Source: a virus (Duplodnaviria; Heunggongvirae; Uroviricota; Caudoviricetes). From it: a stretch of DNA of 64,000 nt. Shown piece by piece: positions 1 to 58,546 of this stretch. Within the stretch, counting starts at the first letter, position 1. Every line of letters starts with the position of its first letter. Made by a program: the position numbers and the translations under genes. Below the pieces are notes generated by a model. That model saw nothing but the letters and a program-made list of their open reading frames with translations. It was not told the origin of the DNA and ran no database searches. The stretch lies in IMG/VR virus record IMGVR_UViG_2718218136_000001, one strand, 5' to 3'.

Positions 1-175
1 TCCATCAACTTCGACAGAGAACTGCCATCCTTGCGCGAACAGCATTTTGTTCATGATGATTGACGTCAGCTTACCAACTTCCCGCTCACCAACGCCGGAG
101 CCAAATAATGTCGTCGTTAATGCCGAAGATACATAAGACTTTACTGAAGCAACATTAAGCCCCATATCAGCCCCC

Positions 176-766
<591 letters not shown>

Positions 767-822
767 TTAACAGATTCTACGAGTTGTCATTTGTGACAGT
801 ATGCTCGCAATCGTAGTGATTA

Positions 823-1362
823 CTACCACCAACTGCTAGCTTTCTTCTCTCTAGCTTTTCCTTCGCTTTGCAGTAAATCTTTACTTCCTGTAGAAATATT
901 TCTATTTGCATCAGCCTCAGACTGAATTACATCTGTCTTAGCTGCTCTCTCCTTCAACTCCTGCTCTATAAAATCGTTTTCTCGCTGGACACGAGCCGCT
1001 TTTGCTTGCAGTTCGAGTTTCATGCTTTCGAGTTGCAGCTTGCGAAGCTCATCCTCATAAGCTTGATCTCGCTTCTTGTCATTTGCTAGCTCGGCTTCTC
1101 GTTTCGCTCTACGTTCATTTTCTGCAGCAACACGCTGTTTTTCGCGTGCAGCAGCGGCAGATGCTGCTTTTTCTCTTCTAATACGTTCAGCTTGTTCTTG
1201 TTGGCGAATAAGTTCTTTTCTGGCATCCTCAGCTTGCTGCTCTTTAGCTCGCCCTTCATTTTCCGCTTGAGCAATAGCAGCAATTTGACTTTGCAACGAG
1301 TTAGCCAAGGCAGTGCCTACACTAAACGTAGAAAAGATTAGAAATAAAATAATTTTATTCAT
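823..1362 (-). CDS. secreted coiled-coil protein with N-terminal signal peptide
   Basis: N-terminus MNKIILFLIFSTFSVGTALA is signal-peptide-like; remainder is highly charged E/Q/R/K-rich, consistent with a periplasmic coiled coil. Confidence 0.5.
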   Translation of the reverse strand: MNKIILFLIFSTFSVGTALANSLQSQIAAIAQAENEGRAKEQQAEDARKELIRQQEQAERIRREKAASAAAAREKQRVAAENERRAKREAELANDKKRDQAYEDELRKLQLESMKLELQAKAARVQRENDFIEQELKERAAKTDVIQSEADANRNISTGSKDLLQSEGKAREKKASSWW

Positions 1363-1365
1363 AAA

Positions 1366-1887
1366 TTATTTCTTTTCTGGACAAGTAGCATTTGGCTGAA
1401 TTCGAGTTTCATTATCTTTAGTTGAAATAAGCACAGCAAGCCCCGTTGTAAACTGGCATGCTTTACCAACTTGAGTTGAAGTGAACACCTTAGTTCCTTC
1501 TTTATAAGTCAGTGAAACACCTTCAACAATTGTTTTATCACTAACCAAAGAACCAGCCGCTGCACCAAGAGCCGCACCACCAGTACCGCCAGCTACAGCA
1601 CCCAGTGTCGATGTGCCTTTAACATTATAACCGGCAACGCCCCCAGCAACAGCTCCCAGTACCGCACCAAATGTCTGTGCCGCTTCTTTATTAGCTTTAT
1701 TATCAACTTTCACTTTAGCTGGAAGCACAGAGATAATATTGACTGTCTTTGTTTCCTGCTTCGAATTCAATTGAGCGGTATCATAAACATCGGCAGCATA
1801 ATCAGCACCGCTAGATTGACACCCAGAAAGAAGAATTGCAGATACAACAAGAGCGCATAAAGTATACTTTTTAGACATAAGAATCAT
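1366..1887 (-). CDS. lipoprotein with glycine-zipper domain (SlyB/17-kDa-antigen-like)
   Basis: Lipobox LLSGC after a hydrophobic N-terminus; GxxxG-rich segment GAVLGAVAGGVAG...GAVAGGTGGAALGAAAG; true start probably the internal Met of MSKKYTL. Confidence 0.55.
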   Translation of the reverse strand: MILMSKKYTLCALVVSAILLSGCQSSGADYAADVYDTAQLNSKQETKTVNIISVLPAKVKVDNKANKEAAQTFGAVLGAVAGGVAGYNVKGTSTLGAVAGGTGGAALGAAAGSLVSDKTIVEGVSLTYKEGTKVFTSTQVGKACQFTTGLAVLISTKDNETRIQPNATCPEKK

Positions 1888-2168
1888 CCCAGAAAAACAA
1901 AAACCGGCGAGAAGTTACCACGAGAACGGAAAGTAAACAAGAATACTCCCATTGACTTATATCAAATAATCAACTTTTTATAAGCTATCCCTAACTTATT
2001 GTGTATAGCTGAAAAGTCAGAGATAAGTTCACCATCTGCATTATTTCTTAAGTTAATAGTTTATTGCTAACTTAATTTATGTATCGACTATTGATATCCA
2101 TCTTAAAGTAACAATATCCCTCTGCATTATTTTTCATCACAAATAATACATCTATTGCACTACGCTCA

Positions 2169-2185
2169 CCTGCTCTAATAAATTT
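2169..2185 (+). promoter_or_regulatory. C1 operator-like site upstream of the immI module
   Basis: cctgctctaataaattt resembles the asymmetric 17-bp C1 operator ATTGCTCTAATAAATTT. Confidence 0.45.
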
Positions 2186-2374
2186 GTATTTTTAAGTCGC
2201 GAATGCTATCTTTTCGCATCATATTGACCTTTTAATCGTTCAGGCTTATAGTTTCGCCGTCGTAGCAAATTCTGCGACCAGGTTTGACAGCCTGAATGAT
2301 TGTGCGGACAACCGCAGATTTCCGATATTGCGGTATTTTTGTGTCCGTTAAACCGCGTTACGCCCAAATTATGG

Positions 2375-2465
2375 TGGGGCGTGATGGGGAGGCTTCGGCC
2401 TGCTGGTTTCACAATCGCCAGTCTGTCAACCCTGTCACGTCCTGCCACCTGTTTGACAGCGGGTA
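2375..2465 (+). ncRNA. candidate c4-like antisense repressor RNA (boundaries approximate)
   Basis: Immediately upstream of icd; contains tcacaatc (2409-2416) and ggcct complementary to gattgtga and the RBS region (2482-2495) in the icd leader, matching the a'/b' versus a2/b2 logic of P1 c4. Confidence 0.35.
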
Positions 2466-2499
2466 GCAGGTTGTTAAACCTGATTGTGAGGCCGTAACT

Positions 2500-2721
2500 A
2501 TGGTTAATGCCAATCCTTGCGCACGCCCAGAATTCATCTGGCGTTTCTATTCCTGTAAAAAACACCACTATCACTTCGTTATCGCAGCAACTGAAGACGA
2601 AGCACGCTCTCAATTGCCTGATGGCCCCTGCATTTTTACTGCCCGTTTTTCAACTAACTCGCGCAATTCACTTAGTTACTGGAGCCTCCCCTTCTCTGCC
2701 GACGTTCAGGGGGGTTTATGA
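2500..2721 (+). CDS. icd: Icd-like cell-division interference protein
   Basis: 73-aa ORF whose stop overlaps the ant start (ATGA); position between the c4-like region and ant matches P1 immI. Confidence 0.75.
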   Translation: MVNANPCARPEFIWRFYSCKKHHYHFVIAATEDEARSQLPDGPCIFTARFSTNSRNSLSYWSLPFSADVQGGL

Positions 2722-3752
2722 AAACACCTCTCGTCACCCGTAATGAAATAGCCGAAGCGATCGCCCTGCATACTGCCTGTATGCCGACACGGGAGATCCC
2801 CGGCGCAATTGCTAACTATTTCATGATAACCAGACGTTTTTATACCCGAACAGATAAGGCTGTGATCAACAGGCTACTGATAGCCGAGATCAGGGATTAT
2901 TTGATTGAACAAGGACGTCTACGTTACGCAACAGTGGCAGCAGAAATGAGAAAGGAGGCACATAGAATGACCGGTAATAATTTAAATGTTGAAAAACCAG
3001 CACCTGTTGCTTCAGCTACGCCAGCACCAGCCCTGAATGTCATCCCCAACACCGGAGACACAATCGACAGCCAAACATTGTTGAAGATGGTCAATGAGGC
3101 ACGGAAATTATGTAGCGAAAAACCAGTTCGCAACAATGATTTCATTGCCAGAGTTAAGGATGAGCTTGAAGGAGAAACCTACGAAATTTTCGTAGGTCAA
3201 AAAAACGGCGCAGTAATAGATATTATAACCATGACCTACAAACAAGCCCTGCGAGTTGCCGCGCGCGAGTCAAAAGCGGTCCGCCGTTCGCTGATCGACA
3301 AACTGGAAGAATTGCAGCAGGCAAACTCCCCTACCCCATCGATCCCCCAAACATTACCAGAAGCTCTACGCCTGGCTGCCGAGTTGGCAGAACAGAAAAT
3401 GCAGTTGGAACAACAGCTGGTGGCCGCAGCCCCTAAAGTCGATTTTGCCGACCGGGTATCAGCGGCTAATGGAATCCTGATCGGGGACTTTGCAAAGGTC
3501 GTTGGACTTAAGCAAAACGCCCTTTTCTCATGGTTGCGCCAGAACGGCATTCTCATGGCTTTTGGTGCGCGCAAAAACGTACCGCGCCAGCAGTACATTA
3601 ACGCCGGGTATTTCACGGTGAAAGAAGTGGTGCTGGATGATGAAAATGGCTACCAGATACGGCTGACGCCCCAATTAACGGGTAAAGGCCAGCAGTGGTT
3701 AACTAGCAAGCTACTTGATGCTGGTTTGTTAAAACCAGTAGCAATAGGTTAA
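2718..3752 (+). CDS. ant: antirepressor Ant (Ant1/Ant2 in-frame pair expected)
   Basis: 344 aa; C-terminal region shares the KilA-C/antirepressor block (PQTLPEALRLAAELAEQK...GKGQQWL) with the KilA ORF and the second ant-like ORF in this window. Confidence 0.75.
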   Translation: MKTPLVTRNEIAEAIALHTACMPTREIPGAIANYFMITRRFYTRTDKAVINRLLIAEIRDYLIEQGRLRYATVAAEMRKEAHRMTGNNLNVEKPAPVASATPAPALNVIPNTGDTIDSQTLLKMVNEARKLCSEKPVRNNDFIARVKDELEGETYEIFVGQKNGAVIDIITMTYKQALRVAARESKAVRRSLIDKLEELQQANSPTPSIPQTLPEALRLAAELAEQKMQLEQQLVAAAPKVDFADRVSAANGILIGDFAKVVGLKQNALFSWLRQNGILMAFGARKNVPRQQYINAGYFTVKEVVLDDENGYQIRLTPQLTGKGQQWLTSKLLDAGLLKPVAIG

Positions 3753-18238: not shown

Positions 18239-19136
18239 GCACTGGAAAAATATTACTATTTATAAACTTTCTCGTGAGGCGGATCTGACCGACTTAGAAG
18301 ATAAAAAGAAAATGATCCTTTTCACGCCATGCGGTAGTCAGGATATGGCCAAGTTCGGTTTTGTATCGCCATTTGGTGATAATTCCGAAGTTATCGCTAT
18401 GCATGGAAATGGTTTTATCCTTGTTGAAGCAAAGCGCGAAACAAAAATTCTTCCCCCGCCGGTTATCCAGCGAGCTATTCAAGAAAAAATTGAAAAACTT
18501 GAGCAAGAACAAGCGCGTAAACTGAAGAAAACAGAGAAGGACTCCCTGAAAGACGAAGTTCTGCATTCTCTTCTGCCACGGGCTTTTTCAAAGTTTTCTG
18601 TTATCCAGGCGATCTACGACGGTTCAACTAAACGTATCTATATCAATGCCAGCGCGCGGCAGGCAGAGGATATGCTCGCGCTTATGCGTAAGTCTCTGGG
18701 TTCTCTTCCTGTTGTGCCACTAAGTGTTGAAAATCCCATTGAGTTAACGCTGACCGACTGGGTACGTGATGCTAGTGCTCCACAGGGATTTCAAATGGGG
18801 GATGCGGCAGAACTTAAGGCAGTGCTTGAGGATGGCGGTATCGCCCGAGTGAAAAAGCAGGATTTGGGAAGCGATGAAATTTCCACACACCTGGAAGCTG
18901 GCAAGCTCGTCACTAAGTTGGCACTCGACTGGCAGAACCGCATTAAATTTACACTGGACCATAACTTCAGCATTACCAGCGTCAATTTTGCGGATGAATT
19001 GCTTGAGCAGAACTCTGATATTGATAGTGAAGATGTTGCGCAGCGACTGGACGCAGATTTCTTCCTATTGACCAGTGAAATTTCGTGCCTGGTTGATGCT
19101 CTGGTAAATGCCCTTGGTGGAGAGGCTAAGCAGTGA
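18231..19136 (+). CDS. hrdC: RdgC-like recombination-associated protein
   Basis: About 300 aa with RdgC-like N-terminus [13 protein letters not shown]; directly upstream of dmt as in P1. Confidence 0.65.
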
Positions 19137-38313: not shown

Positions 38314-41300
38314 CTATATTTTTCCGCCTACGCCTTTAAACTTCTCAATAAACGAGACGATTTTCTGGAAAACTGCCTGTTTTTTCGTTTTATATTGCGG
38401 ATTTAACGGACTAAGTTTTGGTAATGTTTCGTTTAATTCTGTGCCATTTTCGGTGGCATATTCGCGTTTTAAAGACGTGCGAATATAGCGTTTTGCTGCA
38501 TCTTCATTGAGATTTTCTTCTTTTATCAATGCTTCTGCTTCACGTTGCTGTTCGCGTTGAGCAAACGTAAAGAATGCGTCAATGATGCTGGCTTTGTCCG
38601 GTAAATCATCCAGGTTCGTTTGCTGAATAAAATCGACCACCAGGCCCTCTTTAGCACGGTTCCCTAGGCTTGAACGAATTAAGCGTTTGACCTCTTCGAT
38701 CATTTCGCCCTTGCCTTTATTTTGTCTGTTGTGTTCGAAAATCAGTCCAAGGATATAATCCAGGTTTATTTCCTGAGACTTCAGCAAATCGACCTCAAAA
38801 ACTACGTCATCCCAGTCAGTGGTTGATTTCTCTTTTTTCTCAGCTTCTTTCTCACGGCGCTGCCAGTCGCGAATATCGTTATAGGCAGAACGATAATCCT
38901 GAATCTTGCGATCAGCAGGGAGACGAATTGTTTGCAATTTAGCGAACTTTTCATCATCCACATAATGCTCTGCTTTGAATTTTTCTACCGCAACAGGATC
39001 GCTAAGATCGATTTGTTGCAGGGCTTTTAGCGTGGCAAATTCATCATAGTTTTGCAGGATGTTCTCGGCACGCAGGTATTCGCCAAACAGTTTAACGAAG
39101 TCTTTCTTCTCTTTTTCACTTTCAATACTGGTAGGGTCAGGGAACCGTTGTTCCAGTTCTGAAACTACTGTCATAAAGCCGCGTTTAGCTTCACCAGTAG
39201 CAGCATCAGTAAAGCCTTCCATATACTCTGTATAACTCTTTTCTAACACCACATTTTTGGTGTTTTTGTCACCAAACAGCGTTATGGCATCAATAGTTGA
39301 GCGTTCCAGATCCCGGAAAGTGACGATATTACCGAAGGTTTTAGTAGCGTCATAAATGCGGTTGGTGCGGGAAAATGCCTGCATCAGGCCGTGAAAACGC
39401 AAGTTTTTATCGACGAATAGCGTGTTCAATGTTGGAGCATCGAAGCCGGTTAAAAACATCCCCACGACGATTAACAAGTCAACATCCTGATTTTTAACCC
39501 GCTGAGCCAGGTCCCGATAGTAGTTCTGAAAACCCTTGCTATCAGTACTGAAATTCATTTGAAAATGGTCGTTATATTCACGAATTGCAGCATCCAGAAA
39601 CTCTTTAGCACTGCTGTCCATTGCGCTGGTATCAAAAGTTTCATCGGAAATTTCACCAATGGCATTTTGTTCTTCATTAGCGGCAAAGGAGAAGATTGTC
39701 GCAACACGCAGCGGTTTATAGGTAGCCGATTTATTAGCGGCTTCTTCTTGTAACCGTTTAAACGTCGCATAATAGGCTTTCGCGGCATCCACGCTGCTCA
39801 CTGCCAGCATGGCATTAAAGCCTTTGGAGCCTGGGAAGGTACGGTGGGTTTTCTGGCGGAAGTTGTTCAGGATATATTGCGTGATTTCCTGAATACGCAT
39901 GGGATGAAGAAACGCCTGCTGATTTTCAGCCGCACTCAGTTTTTTCTCGTCAGTTTCTGTCTCTAAAGACTTAAACTGTGGCCGCACATCGTTGTAGTCC
40001 ACCTTGAATTTGAGCACTTTTTCGTCACGAATCGCATCGGTAATTACATACGAATGCAATTCACGACCAAATACGCTGGCGGTTGTTTCTGAGCCTAAGG
40101 CGTTTTCCGGGAAAATAGGGGTGCCGGTAAAACCAAACTGATAATAGCGTTTGAATTTCTTCTTCAGGTTTTTCTGCGCTTCTCCAAACTGGCTGCGGTG
40201 GCATTCATCAAATATAAACACCACTTGCTGATTATATACAGGCAGGTCGCTTTCTGCTTTCATCAGATTATTGAGTTTCTGAATAGTAGTGACGATAATT
40301 TTGTTATCGTCCTTATCCAGATTTCGTTTAAGGCCTGCGGTATTTTCCGAGCCGTTGACGCTGTCTGGCGAAAAACGCTGATATTCCTTCATGGTCTGGT
40401 AATCGAGGTCTTTCCTGTCGACCACAAAGAAGACTTTATCAATAAAGTCCAGCTCTGTTGCCAGACGCGCGGCTTTAAAGCTGGTGAGGGTTTTACCAGA
40501 ACCGGTAGTGTGCCAGATATACCCACCGCTTTCCGGTTTTGACCAGTTCTTCGCTGTAAAGGAACTCTTAATTTTCCACAGAATGCGCTCGGTGGCGGCA
40601 ATCTGGTACGGTCGCATCACCAGTAGCGTCTGACTACTGTCAAAAACGCTGTAGTTCACCAGAACATTCAGCAGAGTATGTTTCTGGAAAAAGGTAGCGG
40701 TAAAGTCTTTGAGGTCTTTAATCAGCGTGTTGTCTGATTTCGCCCAATTCATGGTGAAGTCAAAACTGTTTTTATCGCGCTTTGTCGTGTTGGCAAAATA
40801 ACGGGTATCGGTGCCGTTAGAAATGACAAACAGTTGCAGATACTTAAACAGGGAATTTTCGCTGTTAAAACTCTCTTTACTGTAACGATGTATCTGGTTG
40901 AAAGCCTCACGAATCGCCACCCCGCGTTTTTTTAGTTCGATTTGCACCAGCGGTAAACCATTAACCAGGATCGTGACGTCATAACGGTTAGCATGAGAAC
41001 CCGTCTGTTCAAACTGCTGGATAATCTGCACCTTATTGCGCATGAGATTCTTTTTATCTATCAAATAGATGTTCTCAAGTCGCTCGTCATCAAAAATAAA
41101 GTCGCAAATATAGTCGATATGGATTTTACGGGTCTTATCCAGAATGCCATCGCTCGGGTTGTCCAGATACTGCTCCGTGAAACGCCGCCACTCGCTGTCA
41201 TTAAACACCACACCATTGAGGCTCTGAAGCTGTTGTCGAACATTGGCCAGCATCGCCGACTGAGATTTTACGGATATAAATTCATAGCCCTGATTTCGCA

Positions 41301-41430
41301 GGTCCTGAATCAGTTCACGTTCCAGGTCCGATTCGCTCTGGTAGCTGTCGCCTGTTGGCTCAGCTTTGATGTACTTATCAAGAACGATAAAGTTATTGGA
41401 TTCAGCAATGGTGTGTGTCTGATGAGTCAT
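38314..41430 (-). CDS. hsdR: type I restriction enzyme R subunit (EcoR124-like, family IC)
   Basis: 1038 aa; SF2 motifs GSGKT ([11 protein letters not shown]) and DEAH-type [10 protein letters not shown]; same length as EcoR124I HsdR as recalled. Confidence 0.85.
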
Positions 41431-41551
41431 AGCGCATCCTTTGTGCCGTCTGGCAAGGGCCGGAAGGGGGGTAATGGTGACTTCCGGCGCGTAAAAAATA
41501 GTCTATATACTGACCGGGTGTTAAGGTGGTCCGATCGGTAGCAATGATCAA

Positions 41552-42783
<1,232 letters not shown>

Positions 42784-42787
<4 letters not shown>

Positions 42788-44346
42788 TTTTGCACCTCGC
42801 AGCCTTCAATTTCAGCCACAATCGCATCAATATCTTTACGCAACTGGTCGATTTTGCTGACCGTGGTTTTCAGCTCAGCATTCAGCTCAGCAATATCGAT
42901 AATTTCGCGGTTATCTTTCGCTTCCACATAGCTGCTCACCGACAGGTTATAGTCATTAGCAACAACGGTCTCAAACGCGACAGATTTCGCCAGATGAGCA
43001 ACATCTTCCTTGCTGGCAAATACCTGCATAATCTGTTCGATATGGGTATCGGTCAGGATATTGTTGTTAGTCTCTTTTTTGAACAGTTCGCTGGCGTCAA
43101 TAAACTGAACGTTGGTATCCGTTTTATGTTTGGACAGAACCAGAATGTTTACTGCAATGGTGGTGCCAAAGAACAGGTTCGGTGCCAGTGAAATTACGGT
43201 TTCGACATAGTTATTGTCAATCAGATACTGACGGATTTTCTGCTCCGCGCCGCCACGGTAAAAAATACCCGGGAAGCAAACAATCGCAGCACGACCTTTG
43301 GCAGAAAGATAGTTCAGCGCATGTAGTACAAAGGCGAAGTCAGCTTTTGATTTGGGGGCCAGAACGCCAGCCGGGGCAAAACGCTCATCGTTAATCAGTG
43401 TCGGGTCATCGCTGCCAATCCATTTCACCGAATACGGCGGGTTAGAAACGATGGCATCAAACGGTTTTTCATCTCTGAAGTGCGGCTCAGTCAGTGTATT
43501 ACCCAGCCTGATATCAAACTTGTCGTAGTTGATGTTGTGCAAAAACATGTTCATACGCGCCAGATTATAGGTCGTATGGTTGATTTCCTGACCGAAAAAG
43601 CCTTCTTCGATGATATGGTTATCAAACTGCTTTTTAGCCTGCAACAACAGTGAGCCGGAACCCGCTGCCGGGTCGTAGATTTTGTTAACGTTGGTCTGCC
43701 CGTGCATAGCCAGTTGTGCAATCAGCCTGGAGACGTGCTGCGGTGTAAAGAACTCACCGCCTGACTTACCAGCATTCGCCGCATAGTTAGAAATCAGGAA
43801 CTCATAGGCATCGCCGAACAGGTCAATCTGATGTTCGTTAAAGTCGCCAAGCTTTAAGCCTTCAACCCCTTTCAGGACCGCAGCCAGGCGGGCATTTTTA
43901 TCCTTAACGGTGTTACCCAGGCGGTTACTGGTGGTATCGAAATCAGCAAACAGACCTTTGATGTCTGCTTCTGAAGGATAACCGTAAGCAGAACTTTCGA
44001 TAGCAACGAAGATGCTGTTTAAATCTGCATTCAGTCTGTCATTGGTATTTGCTTTCGCCGCTACGTTGCAGAAAAGCTGACTGGGGTAGATGAAGTAGCC
44101 TTTAGTTTTGATGGCATCGTCTTTAATATCATCAGTAATTACGCTGTCATCCAGTTTCGCATAACAGATACTGTCATCACCGGCTTCAATATAGCTGGAA
44201 AAATTTTCGCTGATAAAACGGTAGAAAAGTGCGCCCAGAACGTATTGCTTAAAATCCCATCCATCGACCGAACCCCTGACATCGTTAGCAATTTGCCAGA
44301 TTTGACGATGAAGCTCTGCACGTTGTTGAATACTTGTCATTTTCAT
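42784..44346 (-). CDS. hsdM: type I N6-adenine methyltransferase M subunit
   Basis: 520 aa with VSNPPYS motif IV and AdoMet-binding region; stop overlaps the hsdS start. Confidence 0.85.
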
Positions 44347-49685: not shown

Positions 49686-49702
49686 ACTTGCTCTAATAAA
49701 TT
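49686..49702 (+). promoter_or_regulatory. C1 operator preceding the second icd/ant-like module
   Basis: acttgctctaataaatt directly after the pacB stop. Confidence 0.55.
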
Positions 49703-49879
49703 GTGTTTTTTGACTGCCGATGTTACATTGAACCTGACCTCTTGCGCCTTGAGGCATTTTCGGTTTATGCTTATCAGGCACCTCATTAAAACGGGTGCCG
49801 GGATTGAGACCCCGGATAATGTCAAAGGCGACACAGACGCCGAAAGCGTCTTTTTTTGTGTCATGCCATCGCACAGCCA

Positions 49880-50040
49880 TACGTAGCGTTTAGCTCCGAA
49901 ATCAATGGTAGTGCTGGCTGGGCTGCCGAAAGGCAGGCCGGTTCCCTTTGACGCCGGTAGTCTCAACCCAGTCAGTGCTACCGCCATTGAGATTGAGACC
50001 TCACGCGGTAGCTCCTTAACTTAGTCAAAGGAGGCTGCCA
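49880..50040 (+). ncRNA. candidate second c4-like antisense RNA region (very approximate)
   Basis: Upstream leader of the icd paralog; ccctttgac (49944-49952) is complementary in 8 of 9 positions to gtcaaagga (50024-50032) at the RBS. Confidence 0.25.
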
Positions 50041-50042
50041 TT

Positions 50043-50264
50043 ATGGCTACTGTCCCTACCCCAACTCATCCTGAATTCATCTGGCGCTTCTATTCCTGCC
50101 AGAAACGTCACTATCACTTCGTTATTGCACCGACAGAAGATGAGGCCCGTTCTCAGCTTCCTGACGCTCCCTGCATTTTCTCTGCCCGCTTTTCCACTGA
50201 TTCGCGCAACTCTCTCAGTTACTGGTGCCTCCCTGTTAACGCTTCTGCTCAGGAGGGACTATGA
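50043..50264 (+). CDS. Icd-like protein, second copy
   Basis: 73 aa, highly similar to the first copy (shared PEFIWRFYSC..HYHFVIA.TEDEARSQLPD.PCIF.ARFST.SRNSLSYW). Confidence 0.7.
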   Translation: MATVPTPTHPEFIWRFYSCQKRHYHFVIAPTEDEARSQLPDAPCIFSARFSTDSRNSLSYWCLPVNASAQEGL

Positions 50265-51376
50265 GAACGTCATTAGTCACCCGTGAAGAAATGATTGAGG
50301 CAATTGAACAGCACACATCCTGTATCAGTACCAGGGATATACCGGGCGTTATTGCCAACTACTTCATGATCACCAAACAACTTTACCGGAGAAAGGACAA
50401 GAACGCTGTTCACCGCATTCTGTTGTCTGATATCCGCGAATACCTGCTCGAACAGGGGCATCTGAATTACGCAACCGTCGCAGCCGAAACACGCAAGGAG
50501 GCACACAGAATGAAAGCAACTAACGTTAAATCAGAAAAAACTCATGCACCTTCAGTTCAGGAATCGGAGCTGGTGGTTGTTCAGAATCAGTCTGATGAAA
50601 TTCCCGTTCTGGAATGGCTGGGAGTGCGTGTAGTGACAACTAAGATCCTTGCTAAGGGGTATGGGACAGATGCGGATAACATCAAGAAGAACTTTTCCCG
50701 TAATGCTGAACGTTTTTGTGAAGGCAAGCATTTCTATAAAGTTATTGGAGATGATTTGAACAATTTGCGGGTGACTTTAAGTAACTCACAAAATCCTATC
50801 TCTCCTAAAGCCCGCTCACTCATCCTCTGGACGGAACGCGGCGCAGCCCGCCACGCTAAAATGATCGAAACCGATCAGGCATGGGCATTCTTTGAAAAAC
50901 TGGAAGACAGCTACTTCCGACAAAAAGAACAGCAACCGATCGCAATCCCCCAGACGCTTCCAGAAGCTCTGCGCCTTGCTGCCGAACTGGCTGAACAAAA
51001 GCAACTTCTGGAACAGAAAGCCCATCAGCTAAATCAGCAGCTGGTGGCCGCAGCCCCCAAAGTCGATTTTGCCGACCGGGTATCAGTGGCTAAGGGGATC
51101 CTGATTGGGAATTTTGCAAAGGTCGTTGGACTTAAACAAAATGCGCTGTTTGCCTGGTTACGGGAGAACGGCATTCTGATAGCGTCCGGCGGCCGTAAAA
51201 ATGTACCGTTCCAGCAGTACATAAACGCCGGATATTTCACAGTGAAAGAAGTGGTGCTGGATGATGAAGAGGGCTACCAGATACGGCTGACGCCCCAATT
51301 AACGGGGAAAGGCCAACAGTGGTTGACGCGTAAACTGCTCGATGCTGGCTTGTTAAAACCGGTGGCGGCTGAATAA
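50261..51376 (+). CDS. antirepressor-like protein, second copy, with a different central domain
   Basis: 371 aa; N- and C-terminal regions parallel Ant (LVTR.E..EAI..HT.C..TR.IPG.IANYFMIT; C-terminal PQTLPEALRLAAELAEQK...GKGQQWLT); unique central segment PVLEWLGVRVVTTKILAKGYG. Confidence 0.7.
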   Translation: MRTSLVTREEMIEAIEQHTSCISTRDIPGVIANYFMITKQLYRRKDKNAVHRILLSDIREYLLEQGHLNYATVAAETRKEAHRMKATNVKSEKTHAPSVQESELVVVQNQSDEIPVLEWLGVRVVTTKILAKGYGTDADNIKKNFSRNAERFCEGKHFYKVIGDDLNNLRVTLSNSQNPISPKARSLILWTERGAARHAKMIETDQAWAFFEKLEDSYFRQKEQQPIAIPQTLPEALRLAAELAEQKQLLEQKAHQLNQQLVAAAPKVDFADRVSVAKGILIGNFAKVVGLKQNALFAWLRENGILIASGGRKNVPFQQYINAGYFTVKEVVLDDEEGYQIRLTPQLTGKGQQWLTRKLLDAGLLKPVAAE

Positions 51377-51408
51377 TGGAAGAATGCCCGGTTGATGCCG
51401 GGCATAAT

Positions 51409-52260
51409 TTATTGCGCGCTTTCGGGGTTGTCGTTTACTGGCTGCCCCTTCTTGGTTTTACGGCTGCGCGTAACTGATGCGGCTGACTTAACCTTTTTCT
51501 CTTCGCGAGTGATGGCAATTTGTTTTTTTACATTTTCAATATCTGCCAGGCGATATATTTTTGCTTGCGGCCAGCGGTCGCAGATGATCGGTTCTATGGA
51601 GTCATAAAGGCTAAATTTTGCTTTTTCGAATTCACCGTTGATGATGATTCCATCACGGAGAGTTTCATCGCAGATAAACACGCCACACAGCGGTACATGG
51701 TAACTAACTGATTTACCATCATTGTAGTTAGGGCTACTGGAGATGTAGTGGACGCGCAGCATTGTTTCGCTAAAGCCGTGTACACGCATACGGAATTTTT
51801 CATCCTCCGGGTACTGCCTCATTAGCTCTTTTGTTGCTTCCAGGTTCTCTATGTATTTCGCACTGTGCTCATTGATCCCCGCGCTTTTTTGGATGCGAAT
51901 GTCCTTATCAATCAGATGAATAATGCGGCCAGCGGTCATGTTGACGCTGTTCACAGCTTCTGTCTGATAAGTTGTAACCTTGCGCACACCGCGAAGGATG
52001 TTAGGCACTGGATATAAAATAGTCTTTGGGATATTGAGGTCTGGGTACTGTTCCAGTTCCCGCGCCATTAAAGTCCATTTATCAATTTCAGCCTGAATGC
52101 TGTCCGTTTCTTTGAACGGTAGAACGACAACCGGGCGTACAGGACGACCGTCGCTGGCGGTATCAACGTGTTGGGCGCGTGCAACAGCTTTTTTTAGAAA
52201 GAGATCCCTGAAGCTGACGAACTCCTGGTACAGTTGTTCGCCGTAGACATAATTTATCAT
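51409..52260 (-). CDS. c1: C1 repressor of lysogeny
   Basis: 283 aa, the length recalled for P1 C1; downstream of coi on the same strand; its operator sequence recurs throughout the window. Confidence 0.8.
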   Translation of the reverse strand: MINYVYGEQLYQEFVSFRDLFLKKAVARAQHVDTASDGRPVRPVVVLPFKETDSIQAEIDKWTLMARELEQYPDLNIPKTILYPVPNILRGVRKVTTYQTEAVNSVNMTAGRIIHLIDKDIRIQKSAGINEHSAKYIENLEATKELMRQYPEDEKFRMRVHGFSETMLRVHYISSSPNYNDGKSVSYHVPLCGVFICDETLRDGIIINGEFEKAKFSLYDSIEPIICDRWPQAKIYRLADIENVKKQIAITREEKKVKSAASVTRSRKTKKGQPVNDNPESAQ

Positions 52261-52820: not shown

Positions 52821-52837
52821 ATCTATTAGAGCAATTG
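52821..52837 (-). promoter_or_regulatory. C1 operator
   Basis: Reverse complement attgctctaatagatta. Confidence 0.5.
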
Positions 52838-52961: not shown

Positions 52962-52995
52962 ATAACTTCGTATAGCATACATTATACGAAGTAAA
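52962..52995 (+). other. loxP-type Cre recombination site with variant right arm
   Basis: ataacttcgtata gcatacat tatacgaagtaaa; left arm and spacer match canonical loxP, right arm ends in aaa where canonical loxP has tat. Confidence 0.85.
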
Positions 52996-53413: not shown

Positions 53414-54445
53414 ATGTCCAATTTACTGACCGTACACCAAAATTTGCCTGCATTACCGGTCGATGCAACGAGTGATGATGTTCGCAAGAACCTGATGGAC
53501 ATGTTCAGGGATCGCCAGGCGTTTTCTGAGCATACATGGAAAATGCTTCTGTCCGTTTGCCGGTCGTGGGCGGCATGGTGCAAGTTGAATAACCGGAAGT
53601 GGTTTCCCGCAGAACCTGAAGATGTTCGCGATTATCTTCTATATCTTCAGGCGCGCGGTCTGGCAGTAAAAACTATCCAGCAACATTTGGGCCAGCTAAA
53701 CATGCTTCATCGTCGGTCCGGGCTGCCACGACCAAGTGACAGCAATGCTGTTTCACTGGTTATGCGGCGGATCCGAAAAGAAAACGTTGATGCCGGTGAA
53801 CGTGCAAAACAGGCTCTAGCGTTCGAACGCACTGATTTCGACCAGGTTCGTTCACTCATGGAAAATAGCGATCGCTGCCAGGATATACGTAATCTGGCAT
53901 TTCTGGGGATTGCTTATAACACCCTGTTACGTATAGCCGAAATTGCCAGGATCAGGGTTAAAGATATCTCACGTACTGACGGTGGGAGAATGTTAATCCA
54001 TATTGGCAGAACGAAAACGCTGGTTAGCACCGCAGGTGTAGAGAAGGCACTTAGCCTGGGGGTAACTAAACTGGTCGAGCGATGGATTTCCGTCTCTGGT
54101 GTAGCTGATGATCCGAATAACTACCTGTTTTGCCGGGTCAGAAAAAATGGTGTTGCCGCGCCATCTGCCACCAGCCAGCTATCAACTCGCGCCCTGGAAG
54201 GGATTTTTGAAGCAACTCATCGATTGATTTACGGCGCTAAGGATGACTCTGGTCAGAGATACCTGGCCTGGTCTGGACACAGTGCCCGTGTCGGAGCCGC
54301 GCGAGATATGGCCCGCGCTGGAGTTTCAATACCGGAGATCATGCAAGCTGGTGGCTGGACCAATGTAAATATTGTCATGAACTATATCCGTAACCTGGAT
54401 AGTGAAACAGGGGCAATGGTGCGCCTGCTGGAAGATGGCGATTAG
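53414..54445 (+). CDS. cre: Cre tyrosine recombinase
   Basis: 343 aa beginning MSNLLTVHQNLPALPVDATSD and ending MVRLLEDGD, the well-known Cre sequence; about 420 bp downstream of the lox site. Confidence 0.97.
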   Translation: MSNLLTVHQNLPALPVDATSDDVRKNLMDMFRDRQAFSEHTWKMLLSVCRSWAAWCKLNNRKWFPAEPEDVRDYLLYLQARGLAVKTIQQHLGQLNMLHRRSGLPRPSDSNAVSLVMRRIRKENVDAGERAKQALAFERTDFDQVRSLMENSDRCQDIRNLAFLGIAYNTLLRIAEIARIRVKDISRTDGGRMLIHIGRTKTLVSTAGVEKALSLGVTKLVERWISVSGVADDPNNYLFCRVRKNGVAAPSATSQLSTRALEGIFEATHRLIYGAKDDSGQRYLAWSGHSARVGAARDMARAGVSIPEIMQAGGWTNVNIVMNYIRNLDSETGAMVRLLEDGD

Positions 54446-54495: not shown

Positions 54496-54807
54496 GTGAG
54501 AAAGGATTTCAACATCGACGGAAAATATGTATTGCTGTCTGTAAGCACTAATATTCAGTCGCCAGCCGTCATTGTCACTGTAAAGCTGAGCGATAGAATG
54601 CCTGATATTGACTCAATATCCGTTGCGTTTCCTGTCAAAAGTATGCGTAGTGCTGAACATTTCGTGATGAATGCCACCGAGGAAGAAGCACGGCGCGGTT
54701 TTGCTAAAGTGATGTCTGAGTTTGGCGAACTCTTGGGTAAGGTTAACAATGTCCTTTCAATCAGTTCAGCAAGGTCCAAAGCGTTAACAGCTTCCATGAT
54801 GAAATAA
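54496..54807 (+). CDS. small hypothetical protein (cra position)
   Basis: ORF between cre and ref preceded by a C1 operator; start likely an internal Met. Confidence 0.35.
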   Translation: MRKDFNIDGKYVLLSVSTNIQSPAVIVTVKLSDRMPDIDSISVAFPVKSMRSAEHFVMNATEEEARRGFAKVMSEFGELLGKVNNVLSISSARSKALTASMMK

Positions 54808-54938
54808 AAAAAAGCCTGGCAAGGAGCCAGGCTGCACAAAAGAGCGGGTTTGTATTCCACATCCAATCAATCAAGAAGGAGTATAGCACACAGGTACTGA
54901 AGTGAAAAAATGTGATTCGCGATAAACAAAATACCTAT

Positions 54939-54969
54939 CATTGCTCTAATTGATTGCTATAATTGAGCC
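54939..54969 (+). promoter_or_regulatory. tandem C1 operator-like sites upstream of ref
   Basis: attgctctaattgattg overlapping attgctataattgagcc. Confidence 0.5.
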
Positions 54970-55054
54970 GCAGTTTTTGTCAACTACGAAGACGTTGCCA
55001 TTACTTCACTCCTTGACATCATTGGCGGCCATTAGGCCGCCTTTTTTTTGCCAT

Positions 55055-55615
55055 ATGAAAACAATCGAACAAAAAATTGAACAGTGCCGCAAGTGGCAGA
55101 AGGCAGCCAGAGAACGAGCGATCGCTCGGCAACGGGAGAAGTTGGCTGATCCGGTCTGGCGAGAATCTCAATATCAGAAAATGCGGGATACTCTCGACCG
55201 CCGTATCGCTAAACAGAAAGAGCGCCCACCAGCCAGCAAAACGCGGAAAAGCGCGGTAAAAATAAAATCTCGTGGCTTGAAGGGGAGAACACCAACGGCG
55301 GAGGAACGGCGCATCGCCAATGCTCTTGGCGCTCTCCCCTGCATTGCCTGCTATATGCATGGAGTAATATCTAATGAGGTGTCTCTGCACCATATCGCCG
55401 GTCGTACCGCGCCGGGTTGTCATAAAAAGCAATTGCCACTTTGTAGATGGCACCACCAGCATGCAGCTCCGGCTGAAGTAAGAGAAAAATACCCATGACT
55501 GGTCCCTGTTCATGCCGATGGTGTGGTTGGAGGCAAGAAAGAATTCACCTTGCTGAACAAGTCAGAGATGGAGTTACTGGCTGACGCCTATGAAATGGCA
55601 AACATCATGCACTAA
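55055..55615 (+). pseudogene. ref: ref (HNH nuclease) interrupted by an in-frame TGA at codon 148
   Basis: ORF from MKTIEQKIEQ stops at tga 55496-55498; the same frame continues LVPVHADGVVGGKKEFTLLNKSEMELLADAYEMANIMH to taa at 55613-55615, totalling 186 codons, the length recalled for P1 Ref. Confidence 0.6.
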
Positions 55616-55803
55616 TAAATATATTATTTTTAATGATAAATGATTGACAACTGACAAGTGACTTCAGTCAGAATCATCACACGCCCGGTACGGATGGATC
55701 CCTTTTCAAATATTCCATGGACGGCACAGTCTGAGTACCGGGCGCTACCTTCAGTTGTATTGCTAAGCCGCCGCTGGTGGCTTTTCTTTTTTGTAGGGGC
55801 GCT

Positions 55804-56445
55804 ATGGATAAGAAAATATGCGTTGTTTCAATGAGCGTCGGCAAACCGGCGTCAATGACTGCTGCATGGATCAACAATGAGCTGATCATGGCTGAGCGGA
55901 CCAGCTACCCTGAACGCCGCCGCGATATGGAACTCCAGCTGCTGCGCGAATTGCGAGAAAAAGAGGAAAAGGGTTTTATCGTGCTGGTGGAAGAGGAAAA
56001 CAGCTTTATTACCGGTCGAGTTGGCCAGCGTGTAAGGTTGCGTGATCCCTTCATGAACGGCAGACCGGTACTGATTGAAGCAATGCAGATTTACAAGGAA
56101 TTGGAACGCCAGAAAGCGATCAAGTTACCGCGCAAGGAATCCGGCAAATACATCCTTCACCAAAGCATCTTCGATTCCGAACACGATAAAAAAGGCGATG
56201 AATTTTTCAACATCAACTGGAGCGAAATAACGACAGAACATGTTCTGACGTTACTATGTTGCTTTGCGACGGAATACAACAACGTTGCCAGCGCCGACTA
56301 CATCAGGGCAATGGCTGGAGAAGTTGAGGCCCGCCAGGAGCCATCGTTACTAAGCCCTCTGATTAACAGAATTCGCGGAACCCAAACGCTGGCACAAAAA
56401 CGGGTGCCGAAAGGGGAATTAACAGGAAAAGGAAATTATCTATAA
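55804..56445 (+). CDS. hypothetical protein (mat position)
   Basis: About 213 aa from MDKKICVV; phage-typical GC content; sits between ref and the low-GC island. Confidence 0.45.
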   Translation: MDKKICVVSMSVGKPASMTAAWINNELIMAERTSYPERRRDMELQLLRELREKEEKGFIVLVEEENSFITGRVGQRVRLRDPFMNGRPVLIEAMQIYKELERQKAIKLPRKESGKYILHQSIFDSEHDKKGDEFFNINWSEITTEHVLTLLCCFATEYNNVASADYIRAMAGEVEARQEPSLLSPLINRIRGTQTLAQKRVPKGELTGKGNYL

Positions 56446-56501
56446 ACGTCAATGCATTAGGGTATACTTCTCCATAGAACTATAAGTAAATGGAGTAAGT
56501 A

Positions 56502-57602
56502 ATGAGCGAATATGTTGAGTTAGCATACGCTGCCGCTACAAGCAGGCTTTGTCTATTTACCGGGACTGGCTTTTCAAAGGCAGTCTCGAACGGCGAAGCA
56601 CCAACGTGGAAAGAACTATTAAAAAAAGTTTGCAGCAAAGTTCACAACGCCAAACAGTTGGAAGACACGTTATTCCCTGATGATAAACCACCAGCACTGA
56701 GTCTTGAAGAAGCCGCACAAATACTATCTTTGAAGCTCAACATTGAAGGCAAGTCGATTTATGATGAAATTGTTGACATCATATCTCCAATACAACTTGG
56801 CGAAGATATATCAAATATAAAGGATTTTTTTCAAAAAAGAACATTTCGTGTCATTACAACGAATTATGACAAGTTAGCTGAATACTTAACTGGAGATGAG
56901 GAGGTTCAGTCTATTACCCCAGGCTTACCTATTCCTAAATATCCCTCCAAAGTTAAAATATATCATGTCCATGGTTCTATTGACTCTCCACAAAACATGA
57001 TTGTTACATCAGAAGACTATTTTAGGTTTATAAACTCCGACACTTATTTCTCTCGAAAACTTAGCACGATGCTGCATGAAAATACAGTTGCGATATTAGG
57101 CTATTCTTTAAGCGACACGAACCTAAAAGCAATTATAAATGATTACAAAATATTCTCGAAAGGTAACACTCTGTGCTCTAATATATTTTTCATCTCTCGC
57201 AGTGAAGTAAGTCAAGATATGAAGGATTATTATTTTTATTGTTTTGGAATACGAGTAATTGACAACACCGAAATAGACTCTTTCTTTAAGAGATTGAGCA
57301 TTAACATAATGTTAATTGAAGGCGTCATAGCAAGAGCCAGACAAAGTATAAAAAGAGTTTTATCAGGCACTTTTAACTATAAGGATGAATACATTAGATT
57401 AGAAGATTCATTCTATCAAATAACTTCCTCGATTATATCTGAGGGTTTCGACTGGAATGACGGACAAGTAGTTGATTTTTTTCAAGAGAATAATAAAACA
57501 AAAAAGAGACTTAACAAGAGAGAGTGGTGCTTGGGAGCAATACGAGCAGCTTGCAAAATGGCTTATATATTTCGGCAGCCTTTTAGAAATTGGTGGAACT
57601 AA
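56502..57602 (+). CDS. SIR2-like (SIR2_2-type) NAD-binding protein, candidate anti-phage defence effector
   Basis: 366 aa with LFTGTGFS (Rossmann GxGxS), VITTNYD and YHVHGS motifs in the order seen in defence-associated SIR2 domains; strongly AT-rich relative to its flanks. Confidence 0.65.
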   Translation: MSEYVELAYAAATSRLCLFTGTGFSKAVSNGEAPTWKELLKKVCSKVHNAKQLEDTLFPDDKPPALSLEEAAQILSLKLNIEGKSIYDEIVDIISPIQLGEDISNIKDFFQKRTFRVITTNYDKLAEYLTGDEEVQSITPGLPIPKYPSKVKIYHVHGSIDSPQNMIVTSEDYFRFINSDTYFSRKLSTMLHENTVAILGYSLSDTNLKAIINDYKIFSKGNTLCSNIFFISRSEVSQDMKDYYFYCFGIRVIDNTEIDSFFKRLSINIMLIEGVIARARQSIKRVLSGTFNYKDEYIRLEDSFYQITSSIISEGFDWNDGQVVDFFQENNKTKKRLNKREWCLGAIRAACKMAYIFRQPFRNWWN

Positions 57603-57860
57603 GTATGAAAATGAATATTTAGACGCCGTTGAATACTCAATGTCCAACATGAGCAAAGAAATGAGATTAGGTTATTCGTGGCATGCTTATAGAGCTTGGG
57701 AAACAAGATGGTCCACAATCATTGCTTCAAATCGATTAATAATAAAAAACGCATCGAAGAAATTGGCGTACTGGAGGATGCTAATTCTATAGTAAAAGAT
57801 ATAGTGTAATTGAAGAGCGGCAAAAATTTAACGGGCAGCTACAACTGCCCGATATATAAA

Positions 57861-58109
57861 TCAATCCGCATTCAGGAGCAATGCGTTATCTATGATGATC
57901 TGCTCCCATTCTTCGAATGCCCGGTCGCGGACGCCCTGGGGAACGCTGTTAGTTTTGAAATCGACGACCGTACGCCATTTCCCGTCCGGACGGTACATGC
58001 GCAGAGCTTTACTTCCCCCTTCCCTGCGCACCTCAACGTTATGCTTATCAGCAAACTCTTGTAATGCTCGTAGCGTCCCATGCTTTACTGTGTAGTATCG
58101 CTTTTTCAA
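57861..58109 (-). CDS. small regulatory protein (lxc/bof position)
   Basis: 82-aa ORF directly downstream of the ulx-like ORF on the darB strand; assignment by position and size. Confidence 0.4.
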   Translation of the reverse strand: MKKRYYTVKHGTLRALQEFADKHNVEVRREGGSKALRMYRPDGKWRTVVDFKTNSVPQGVRDRAFEEWEQIIIDNALLLNAD

Positions 58110-58546
58110 GTTTTCTCTCCAGCCTGTGCCAAGGCTTCAACTTCCAAATCGTAAGACTCAAACTCATAGTCCTGGTCGTCAACTTCTTCAGGCACTGGCA
58201 GTAAATGCCAGGCTGAGTATATCTGACCATTATCAAAACGCTCCTGGCTGTAGAGCGTCGCGGCTATGAGTGTTAGCGCCGGGCGGTCATAACGGTAAAT
58301 TTTGCGAACGTCACGGTCAACGAGACGACCGAAATTACCATAACCGCGCTCCAGTAATAATTTTTTAATTTCCGGCCAGTATGGACCATAGCTGCGGTAC
58401 AGGCGGGGATTTTTCAGTAATCGCCCGCGTAGCCCTGACAGGAAGAAATCAACGTATTCGTCTTCTGTCTTTCCTAACAACGCTGTACGGAGTACCGCCT
58501 CAAGATATGTTTTATTCGGTTTTATTGTATCAGATAGTGTGGCCAT
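58106..58546 (-). CDS. hypothetical protein (ulx position)
   Basis: 146-aa ORF between the darB-like gene and the lxc-like ORF, overlapping stop/start. Confidence 0.4.
   Translation of the reverse strand: MATLSDTIKPNKTYLEAVLRTALLGKTEDEYVDFFLSGLRGRLLKNPRLYRSYGPYWPEIKKLLLERGYGNFGRLVDRDVRKIYRYDRPALTLIAATLYSQERFDNGQIYSAWHLLPVPEEVDDQDYEFESYDLEVEALAQAGEKT

Follow-up and report, generated by a model that had tools for sequence, protein, structure and literature searches.

A premature opal codon at Trp148 of ref in a young lineage of P1-like phage-plasmids

Introduction

The ref gene in the stretch of DNA studied here (64,000 nucleotides, hereafter the window) is interrupted by an in-frame TGA ahead of a histidine codon of its nuclease active site, which raises the question whether the stop is an error in the sequence, a site of recoding or a genuine mutation, and what such a mutation would leave of the encoded protein. 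Ref consists of a disordered, basic N-terminal DNA-binding segment of 76 residues, followed by a 110-residue HNH domain of the His-Me finger type with two Zn ions (PMC4330346, PMC3973344). The Zn ion of the active site is coordinated by His153 (PMC3973344, PMC4713147).

The ref locus and its regulation

The DNA of the window is that of a P1-like phage-plasmid with a mosaic structure; blocks of it align to P1 (NC_005856) at 96–99% identity. Nucleotide 1 of P1, at lox, corresponds to window position 52979, and around ref the collinearity with P1 extends over P1 nt 1–3462. A SIR2-domain gene 3' of mat occupies the place of the P1 res/mod genes. Promoters and operators of ref were placed by coordinate transfer from the P1 annotation with an offset of 52978 (Table 1). 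Only two positions differ from P1 between 54935 and 55794; the nearest upstream difference lies at 54934, one base before the -35 element, and the promoter and operator bases are those of P1. This is thus the same gene as P1 ref in the same place (cre-c8-ref-mat), lying between c8 and mat with Oref over its promoter, and since the ref promoters and Oref are identical to those of P1, transcription and its repression by C1 should persist as in P1.

Table 1. Features of the ref locus in the window (position 1 is the first letter of the window)
Feature	Position	Strand	Description	Basis
cre	53414–54445		first in local gene order	
c8	54496–54807		between cre and ref	
ref control region	54935–55022	+	P1 1957–2044	transferred from P1 annotation
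P2ref promoter	54935–54963	+		transferred from P1
C1 operator Oref	54940–56	+		transferred from P1
P1ref promoter	54995–55022	+		transferred from P1
164-aa antisense ORF	55019–55513	-	called in carriers in place of ref; no Pfam hit	
full ref frame	55055–55615	+	147 codons, TGA, 38 in-frame codons (LVPVHADG...ANIMH), TAA	translation
truncated ref reading frame	55055–55498	+	147 codons and premature TGA	translation; Pfam; P1 alignment
premature opal stop	55496–55498	+	TGA for TGG (Trp148), G>A at 55498	P1 alignment
in-frame 3' remnant of ref	55499–55615	+	codons 149–186 and TAA; C-terminal part of nuclease domain	
His153 codon CAT	55511–55513	+	downstream of premature TGA	
codon 180 GAA (Glu)	55592–55594	+	synonymous G>A versus P1 GAG, changed base 55594	
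C1 operator Omat	55606–55623	-	P1 2628–2645; overlaps end of ref; same as in P1	transferred from P1
mat	ATG at 55804		3' of ref	

The TGG to TGA change against P1 and relatives

The original prediction, made from the letters of the window, had a Ref reading frame that stops at codon 148 and continues in frame for 38 further codons to a total of 186, and translation bears out every one of these coordinates and counts. The length of 186 residues stated there for P1 Ref is indeed that of the P1 annotation and of PDB 3PLW chain A, by which an end of P1 Ref at residue 147 is excluded. At the nucleotide level the window is identical to P1 ref in 559 of 561 positions, the two changes both being G>A, one of them converting the TGG of W148 to TGA and the other the GAG of codon 180 to GAA. 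Residues 1–147 and 149–186 are identical to those of P1 Ref, and with Trp placed at position 148 the 186-residue product matches P1 Ref and PDB 3PLW chain A at 100% identity. The proposed origin of the stop from TGG is therefore the exact difference from P1, and the same codon is TGG in all of the 80 ref loci retrieved from IMG/VR. GAA at codon 180 is an ordinary polymorphism, as it is present in 14 of the 80 other IMG/VR ref alleles, and it accompanies the TGA in all carriers that cover the site; the TGA is the unusual change.

The allele was searched for in PLSDB, complete E. coli genomes, INPHARED phages, IMG/VR and GTDB representatives. A 100% match to a 261-nt stretch around the stop was found in none of the ref-bearing 21 phages, ~700 plasmids and 674 complete E. 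coli genomes, and the exact 35-mer across the TGA was absent from IMG/VR and from the GTDB representative genomes. The closest complete plasmid with the cre-ref-mat-SIR2 layout is the IncY plasmid pESA139_3 of E. albertii, in which Ref is intact at 186 aa. This makes the TGA the derived state. Neither a record nor an annotation of this specific W148 TGA allele was found, and the lesion itself is a textbook nonsense mutation rather than a new kind of event.

Carriers of the allele

Eleven further public samples carry the TGA allele. They are drawn from NCBI isolate drafts, Logan read-set assemblies and ENA metagenomes and comprise three NCBI draft assemblies (GCA_023599035.1, GCA_035827035.1 and GCA_916160465.1), five read-set assemblies (ERR1880019, ERR3567397, SRR34282156, SRR23199305 and SRR31216263) and three metagenome assemblies (ERZ773216, ERZ28659508 and ERZ27262436). 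The 35-mer across the TGA was found in a metagenome contig (L005, from ERZ773216) that matches window 54886–58440 at 99.86%. Carriers were reached through contigs encoding the exact Cre of the window and then through an exact antisense ORF sequence. In several of the contigs with the exact Cre, Ref is not called and a 164-aa antisense ORF is called instead, and because this ORF spans the mutation its exact sequence could serve as a handle for carriers. An exact look-up of the 147-aa product and of a 182-aa version with a TTG start returned no record, gene callers calling the antisense ORF in their place. The antisense call as such was rejected as a marker of a broken ref, since one locus (L092) and the cluster members with 'DQPG' carry TGG. 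As the call is unreliable, codon 148 was read directly at every locus, which gave as carrier loci L005, L086/L095, L088, L091 (ERR1880019), L096 (GCA_916160465.1) and L097–L102. The antisense ORF is sometimes called where ref is intact, L092 being an example.

The carriers differ from the window and among themselves elsewhere, forming at least seven distinguishable genotypes. They represent two variants of the backbone, set apart by the presence or absence of an antirepressor-like insert of 1.7 kb at 49690–51410, and there is also a block of ~31 SNPs in the c1 region. Outside recombined blocks the carriers differ at ~4 sites in 11 kb. Two of them have a further change in ref, one each, both nonsynonymous: R57C (L088) and E84K (L098). 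The TGA carriers form one young, spreading lineage.

Located between pacB and c1, this insert is restricted to a subset of the TGA carriers (the window, L088 and L096). Its gene at 50261–51376 encodes a 371-aa antirepressor-like protein with ORF6N and ANT (KilAC) domains, and part of the insert is 86% identical to P1 ant.

These carriers bear directly on the suggestion that the stop is a sequencing or assembly error, with TGG as the true codon and ref intact. Such an error might be suspected from a single-base change in a window known as an assembled sequence, the more so as the allele is missing from all five collections searched above. The identical TGA ref, however, recurs in 11 samples that come from different sources and differ elsewhere, and which thus represent independent data. 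Moreover, the site lies outside any homopolymer and outside GATC or CCWGG methylation motifs, and among the annotated P1 genes in the window ref alone has an internal stop, which argues against a generally noisy assembly. A sequencing error, one of the alternatives originally put forward, is hence refuted unless all the carrier assemblies stem from one erroneous data set, which is unlikely, and we regard it as next to impossible. On the comparison of these sequences, the TGA allele of ref is a real Trp148 nonsense mutation that is vertically inherited.

What the truncated protein keeps and loses

The 147-residue product retains the basic DNA-binding segment of 76 residues, identical to residues 1–76 of P1 Ref, together with some 70 residues from the start of the HNH domain, among them the Cys96/Cys99/Cys130/His133 cluster and His134. 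It lacks residues 148–186, so that 39 of the 110 domain residues are gone. As had been predicted, the lost tail starts with LVPVHADG and includes His153, the codon of which follows the stop; of the active-site Zn ligands His134 and His153 only the former is thus kept. In line with this, the nuclease domain is incomplete when measured against Pfam PF16786 (RecA_dep_nuc, gathering cut-off 26.9 bits): the truncated product scores 112.9 bits over profile positions 1–66 of 103, and the read-through product scores 172.7 bits over positions 1–102 of 103. A scan of NCBIfam yielded no model matching Ref, and a single-sequence AlphaFold2 prediction of full-length Ref was unusable, with a mean pLDDT of 54 and values <50 across the nuclease domain.

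His153 had been described in the original prediction as catalytic in P1 Ref. Its place in the active site as a Zn-coordinating residue is well founded (PMC3973344, PMC4713147), but the term is too strong, as H153A still slowly nicks the paired strand of a D-loop (PMC3973344). [quoted passage not shown] The truncation exceeds this lesion, and its loss of 39 of the 110 domain residues would be expected to leave Ref(1–147) unable to make RecA-directed double-strand breaks. Some residual activity may persist, as H153A keeps slow nicking, although the truncation removes far more of the domain.

The natural allele can be set beside the variants engineered in the Cox laboratory, namely H153A, the published nuclease-dead variant H134/153A (nuc-; PMC4713147) and Ref deltaC110, with which it shares a retained N-terminal segment and the loss of His153. 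None of these variants produces double-strand breaks (PMC3973344, PMC4330346, PMC4713147). The nuc- protein causes about half the SOS induction and toxicity, and Ref deltaC110 gives strong SOS induction with little lasting toxicity (PMC3973344, PMC4330346, PMC4713147). The natural product is intermediate among them, as it still contains residues 77–147 of the nuclease domain, a part that probably does not fold stably once the C-terminal third is missing. Over-expression of the N-terminal 76 residues alone induces SOS and slows growth (PMC4713147), and given these effects the truncated fragment may not be inert. Of the predicted nonsense-inactivated HNH nuclease, the nonsense mutation is thus well supported, and inactivation is what we infer for a protein whose N-terminal domain has effects of its own in vivo.

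Decoding of the UGA

The 3' remnant of ref would be translated only upon read-through of the TGA, a possibility that had been raised from the outset. In its strong form this means programmed recoding, by stimulated read-through, selenocysteine insertion or a suppressor tRNA encoded on the element, with full-length Ref as the main product. The 38 downstream codons are indeed intact and in frame, the element has tRNA genes of its own, and E. coli reads UGA as Trp at a low level. The three tRNAs of the window, however, are those of P1, Asn(GTT), Thr(TGT) and Met/Ile (CAT anticodon), none of which decodes UGA. The RNA 3' of the stop shows no unusual structure, the 71 nt from the stop having a minimum free energy of -15.1 against a shuffle mean of -16.7 kcal/mol (z +0.53), with 135 of 200 shuffles folding as well, and an Rfam scan gave no family above threshold, with only sub-threshold chance matches at E<=1. 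The stop is also not conserved among relatives but confined to one young lineage, outside of which all of them have TGG, the opposite of the pattern of a programmed signal, and TGA is a normal stop in this element, ending 11 of the 39 long ORFs in the window. With no tRNA for UGA on the element, no hairpin, no conservation and TGA in ordinary use as a stop, programmed recoding is rejected as extremely improbable.

What can be expected from the literature is ordinary leakiness. Of the three stop codons in E. coli, UGA leaks the most, and the inserted residue is almost always Trp (PMC11126739). In E. coli K-12, where Trp-tRNA competes with RF2, read-through of UGA amounts to ~2% at 37 C and ~4% at 25 C (PMC10570021). 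The RF2 of natural E. coli is more efficient than that of K-12 (PMC11126739), and read-through in natural isolates therefore probably falls below the K-12 figures. On these grounds only basal leakiness would be expected at codon 148, about 2–4% in K-12 and probably lower in natural isolates. Since the inserted Trp is the wild-type residue at position 148, read-through would rebuild the exact wild-type Ref, and the allele may for this reason be hypomorphic rather than null.

The local context of the stop, CCA(Pro147)-UGA-C, could modulate this level. Peptides that end in Pro are released more slowly (Hayes 2002 and Pierson 2016, both cited in PMC7246954 and PMC3834316), and Pro147 ahead of the stop may thus slow release and invite tmRNA tagging. 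With respect to the base after the stop, an E. coli reporter study of the +4 position found G leaky and T tight and nothing decisive on C. Poole et al. reportedly placed UGA-C last in a 1995 ranking of E. coli stop signals by strength. The +4 C was set aside as an argument for leakiness, the effects given by the reporter study being those of G and T.

Probable loss of Ref function and its possible consequences

We assign a probability of about 0.85 to the reading that the W148 TGA marks a natural allele of a dispensable accessory gene, loss-of-function or strongly hypomorphic and possibly leaky, that is vertically inherited and involves no special decoding. With its transcription signals intact, ref would still be expressed under C1 control, and translation would end after Pro147, leaving as main product a 147-residue fragment in which the basic N-terminal segment that binds DNA is followed by roughly two thirds of the HNH domain, without His153. 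P1 Ref differs in that codon 148 is read as Trp, the primary product here ending at Pro147 without a third of the nuclease domain. Near-cognate reading of the UGA by tRNA-Trp may add a small percentage of full-length Ref, exactly as in the wild type.

That ref can be lost is in keeping with what is known from P1. Lysogens of P1 with a ref deletion grow and lyse normally, and intact ref increases the killing of P1 lysogens by ciprofloxacin, reduces lysogenisation 40-fold and has a toxic effect near stationary phase (PMC4713147). A gene that is dispensable and at the same time costly to the host would be expected to be lost by a plasmid-prophage at no cost or with a mild advantage. Other lesions of ref were found among 78 IMG/VR loci, four of them frameshifts, either early (L072, L078 and L079) or late (L066), and in the plasmid NZ_CP034789.1, where ref is interrupted by an IS1 insertion, so that loss of ref recurs in nature. 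In contrast to these frameshifts and the insertion, the allele described here is the sole nonsense allele among the lesions found, and the only one that basal read-through, by virtue of a UGA at a Trp codon, could repair exactly.

This property also invites an adaptive explanation, according to which the opal codon was selected as an attenuator, being kept for a few percent of Ref made through Trp read-through, for a DNA-binding fragment without nuclease, or for both. If this were true, the element would benefit from less Ref toxicity, more lysogenisation and better survival of fluoroquinolones with some function retained. The costs of intact ref named above are consistent with such a benefit, as are the spread of the allele across two variants of the backbone and no fewer than 11 samples, the K-12 rates of UGA read-through with insertion of Trp, and the slow release at a C-terminal Pro. 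A plain neutral or beneficial knockout, however, accounts for the same facts, and the better RF2 of natural isolates argues for less read-through than in K-12. The unmutated tail of 38 codons was rejected as evidence of selection, because an intact tail is uninformative in a lineage as young as this one, with its ~4 differences in 11 kb, and the nonsynonymous R57C and E84K of two carriers fit relaxed constraint as well as anything else. Selection for attenuation is thus unlikely. Slightly less likely again is its most specific form, in which W148opal acts as a selected 'leaky switch' whose slowly terminating Pro-UGA lets through a few percent of wild-type Ref, and more in the cold or in stationary phase. 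Lysogeny and fluoroquinolone survival would then be favoured, with a condition-dependent trickle of active nuclease beside the DNA-binding fragment.

Within the preferred reading of a dispensable gene broken by a nonsense mutation, the data fit neutral decay as well as selected loss, and hitch-hiking as well as selection. The general significance of the ref allele is small, yet a ref-defective lineage of circulating P1-like (IncY) plasmids provides a natural experiment on whether the loss of Ref helps the plasmid or the host. It further illustrates that a broken ref is invisible in protein databases, where the antisense ORF is annotated instead and ref looks absent, and it is a clear example of a lesion that basal read-through of UGA would undo, which matters when 'pseudogenes' are scored.

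Other differences and probable damage in the window

The gene in the place of P1 res/mod encodes a SIR2_2 domain (56502–57602, + strand) and is 366 aa long owing to a run of seven T (57476–57482), a form common to the window, L096 (GCA_916160465.1) and L091 (ERR1880019). With a run of six T, as in L005, L095, L097 and E. albertii pESA139_3, the product is 435 aa long. Its distribution suggests that the T7 is a frameshift inherited within a sub-lineage, which would give the element another damaged accessory gene beside ref. Downstream of the premature stop in this gene, at 57744–57749, the window has a private A6 where the other covering carriers have A7.

Upstream of the mat ATG the window has a 1-nt deletion relative to P1 at 55795. 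Mat of all relatives is 213 aa long and called from the ATG equivalent to 55804, so that the longer mat start of the RefSeq P1 record (P1 nt 2716) is probably over-extended. Within mat, position 56369 is a private G in the window and T in all other carriers that cover the site. A further private base is found at 52823, which is C in the window and T in the other covering carriers. At 54496 the window and L096 start c8 with GTG, whereas P1 and the other carriers covering the site have ATG.

At greater distance from ref, a complete type I restriction-modification system is encoded at 38314–44346 on the - strand, with hsdR (1038 aa), hsdS (411 aa) and hsdM (520 aa); this segment is not from P1 and lies between the pap/pmgT region and phd. 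The frame of the DNA methyltransferase gene dmt (19130–22417, + strand) measures ~1095 codons from stop to stop, compared with 755 in P1, and contains a non-P1 insert of ~1 kb after about P1 residue 79.
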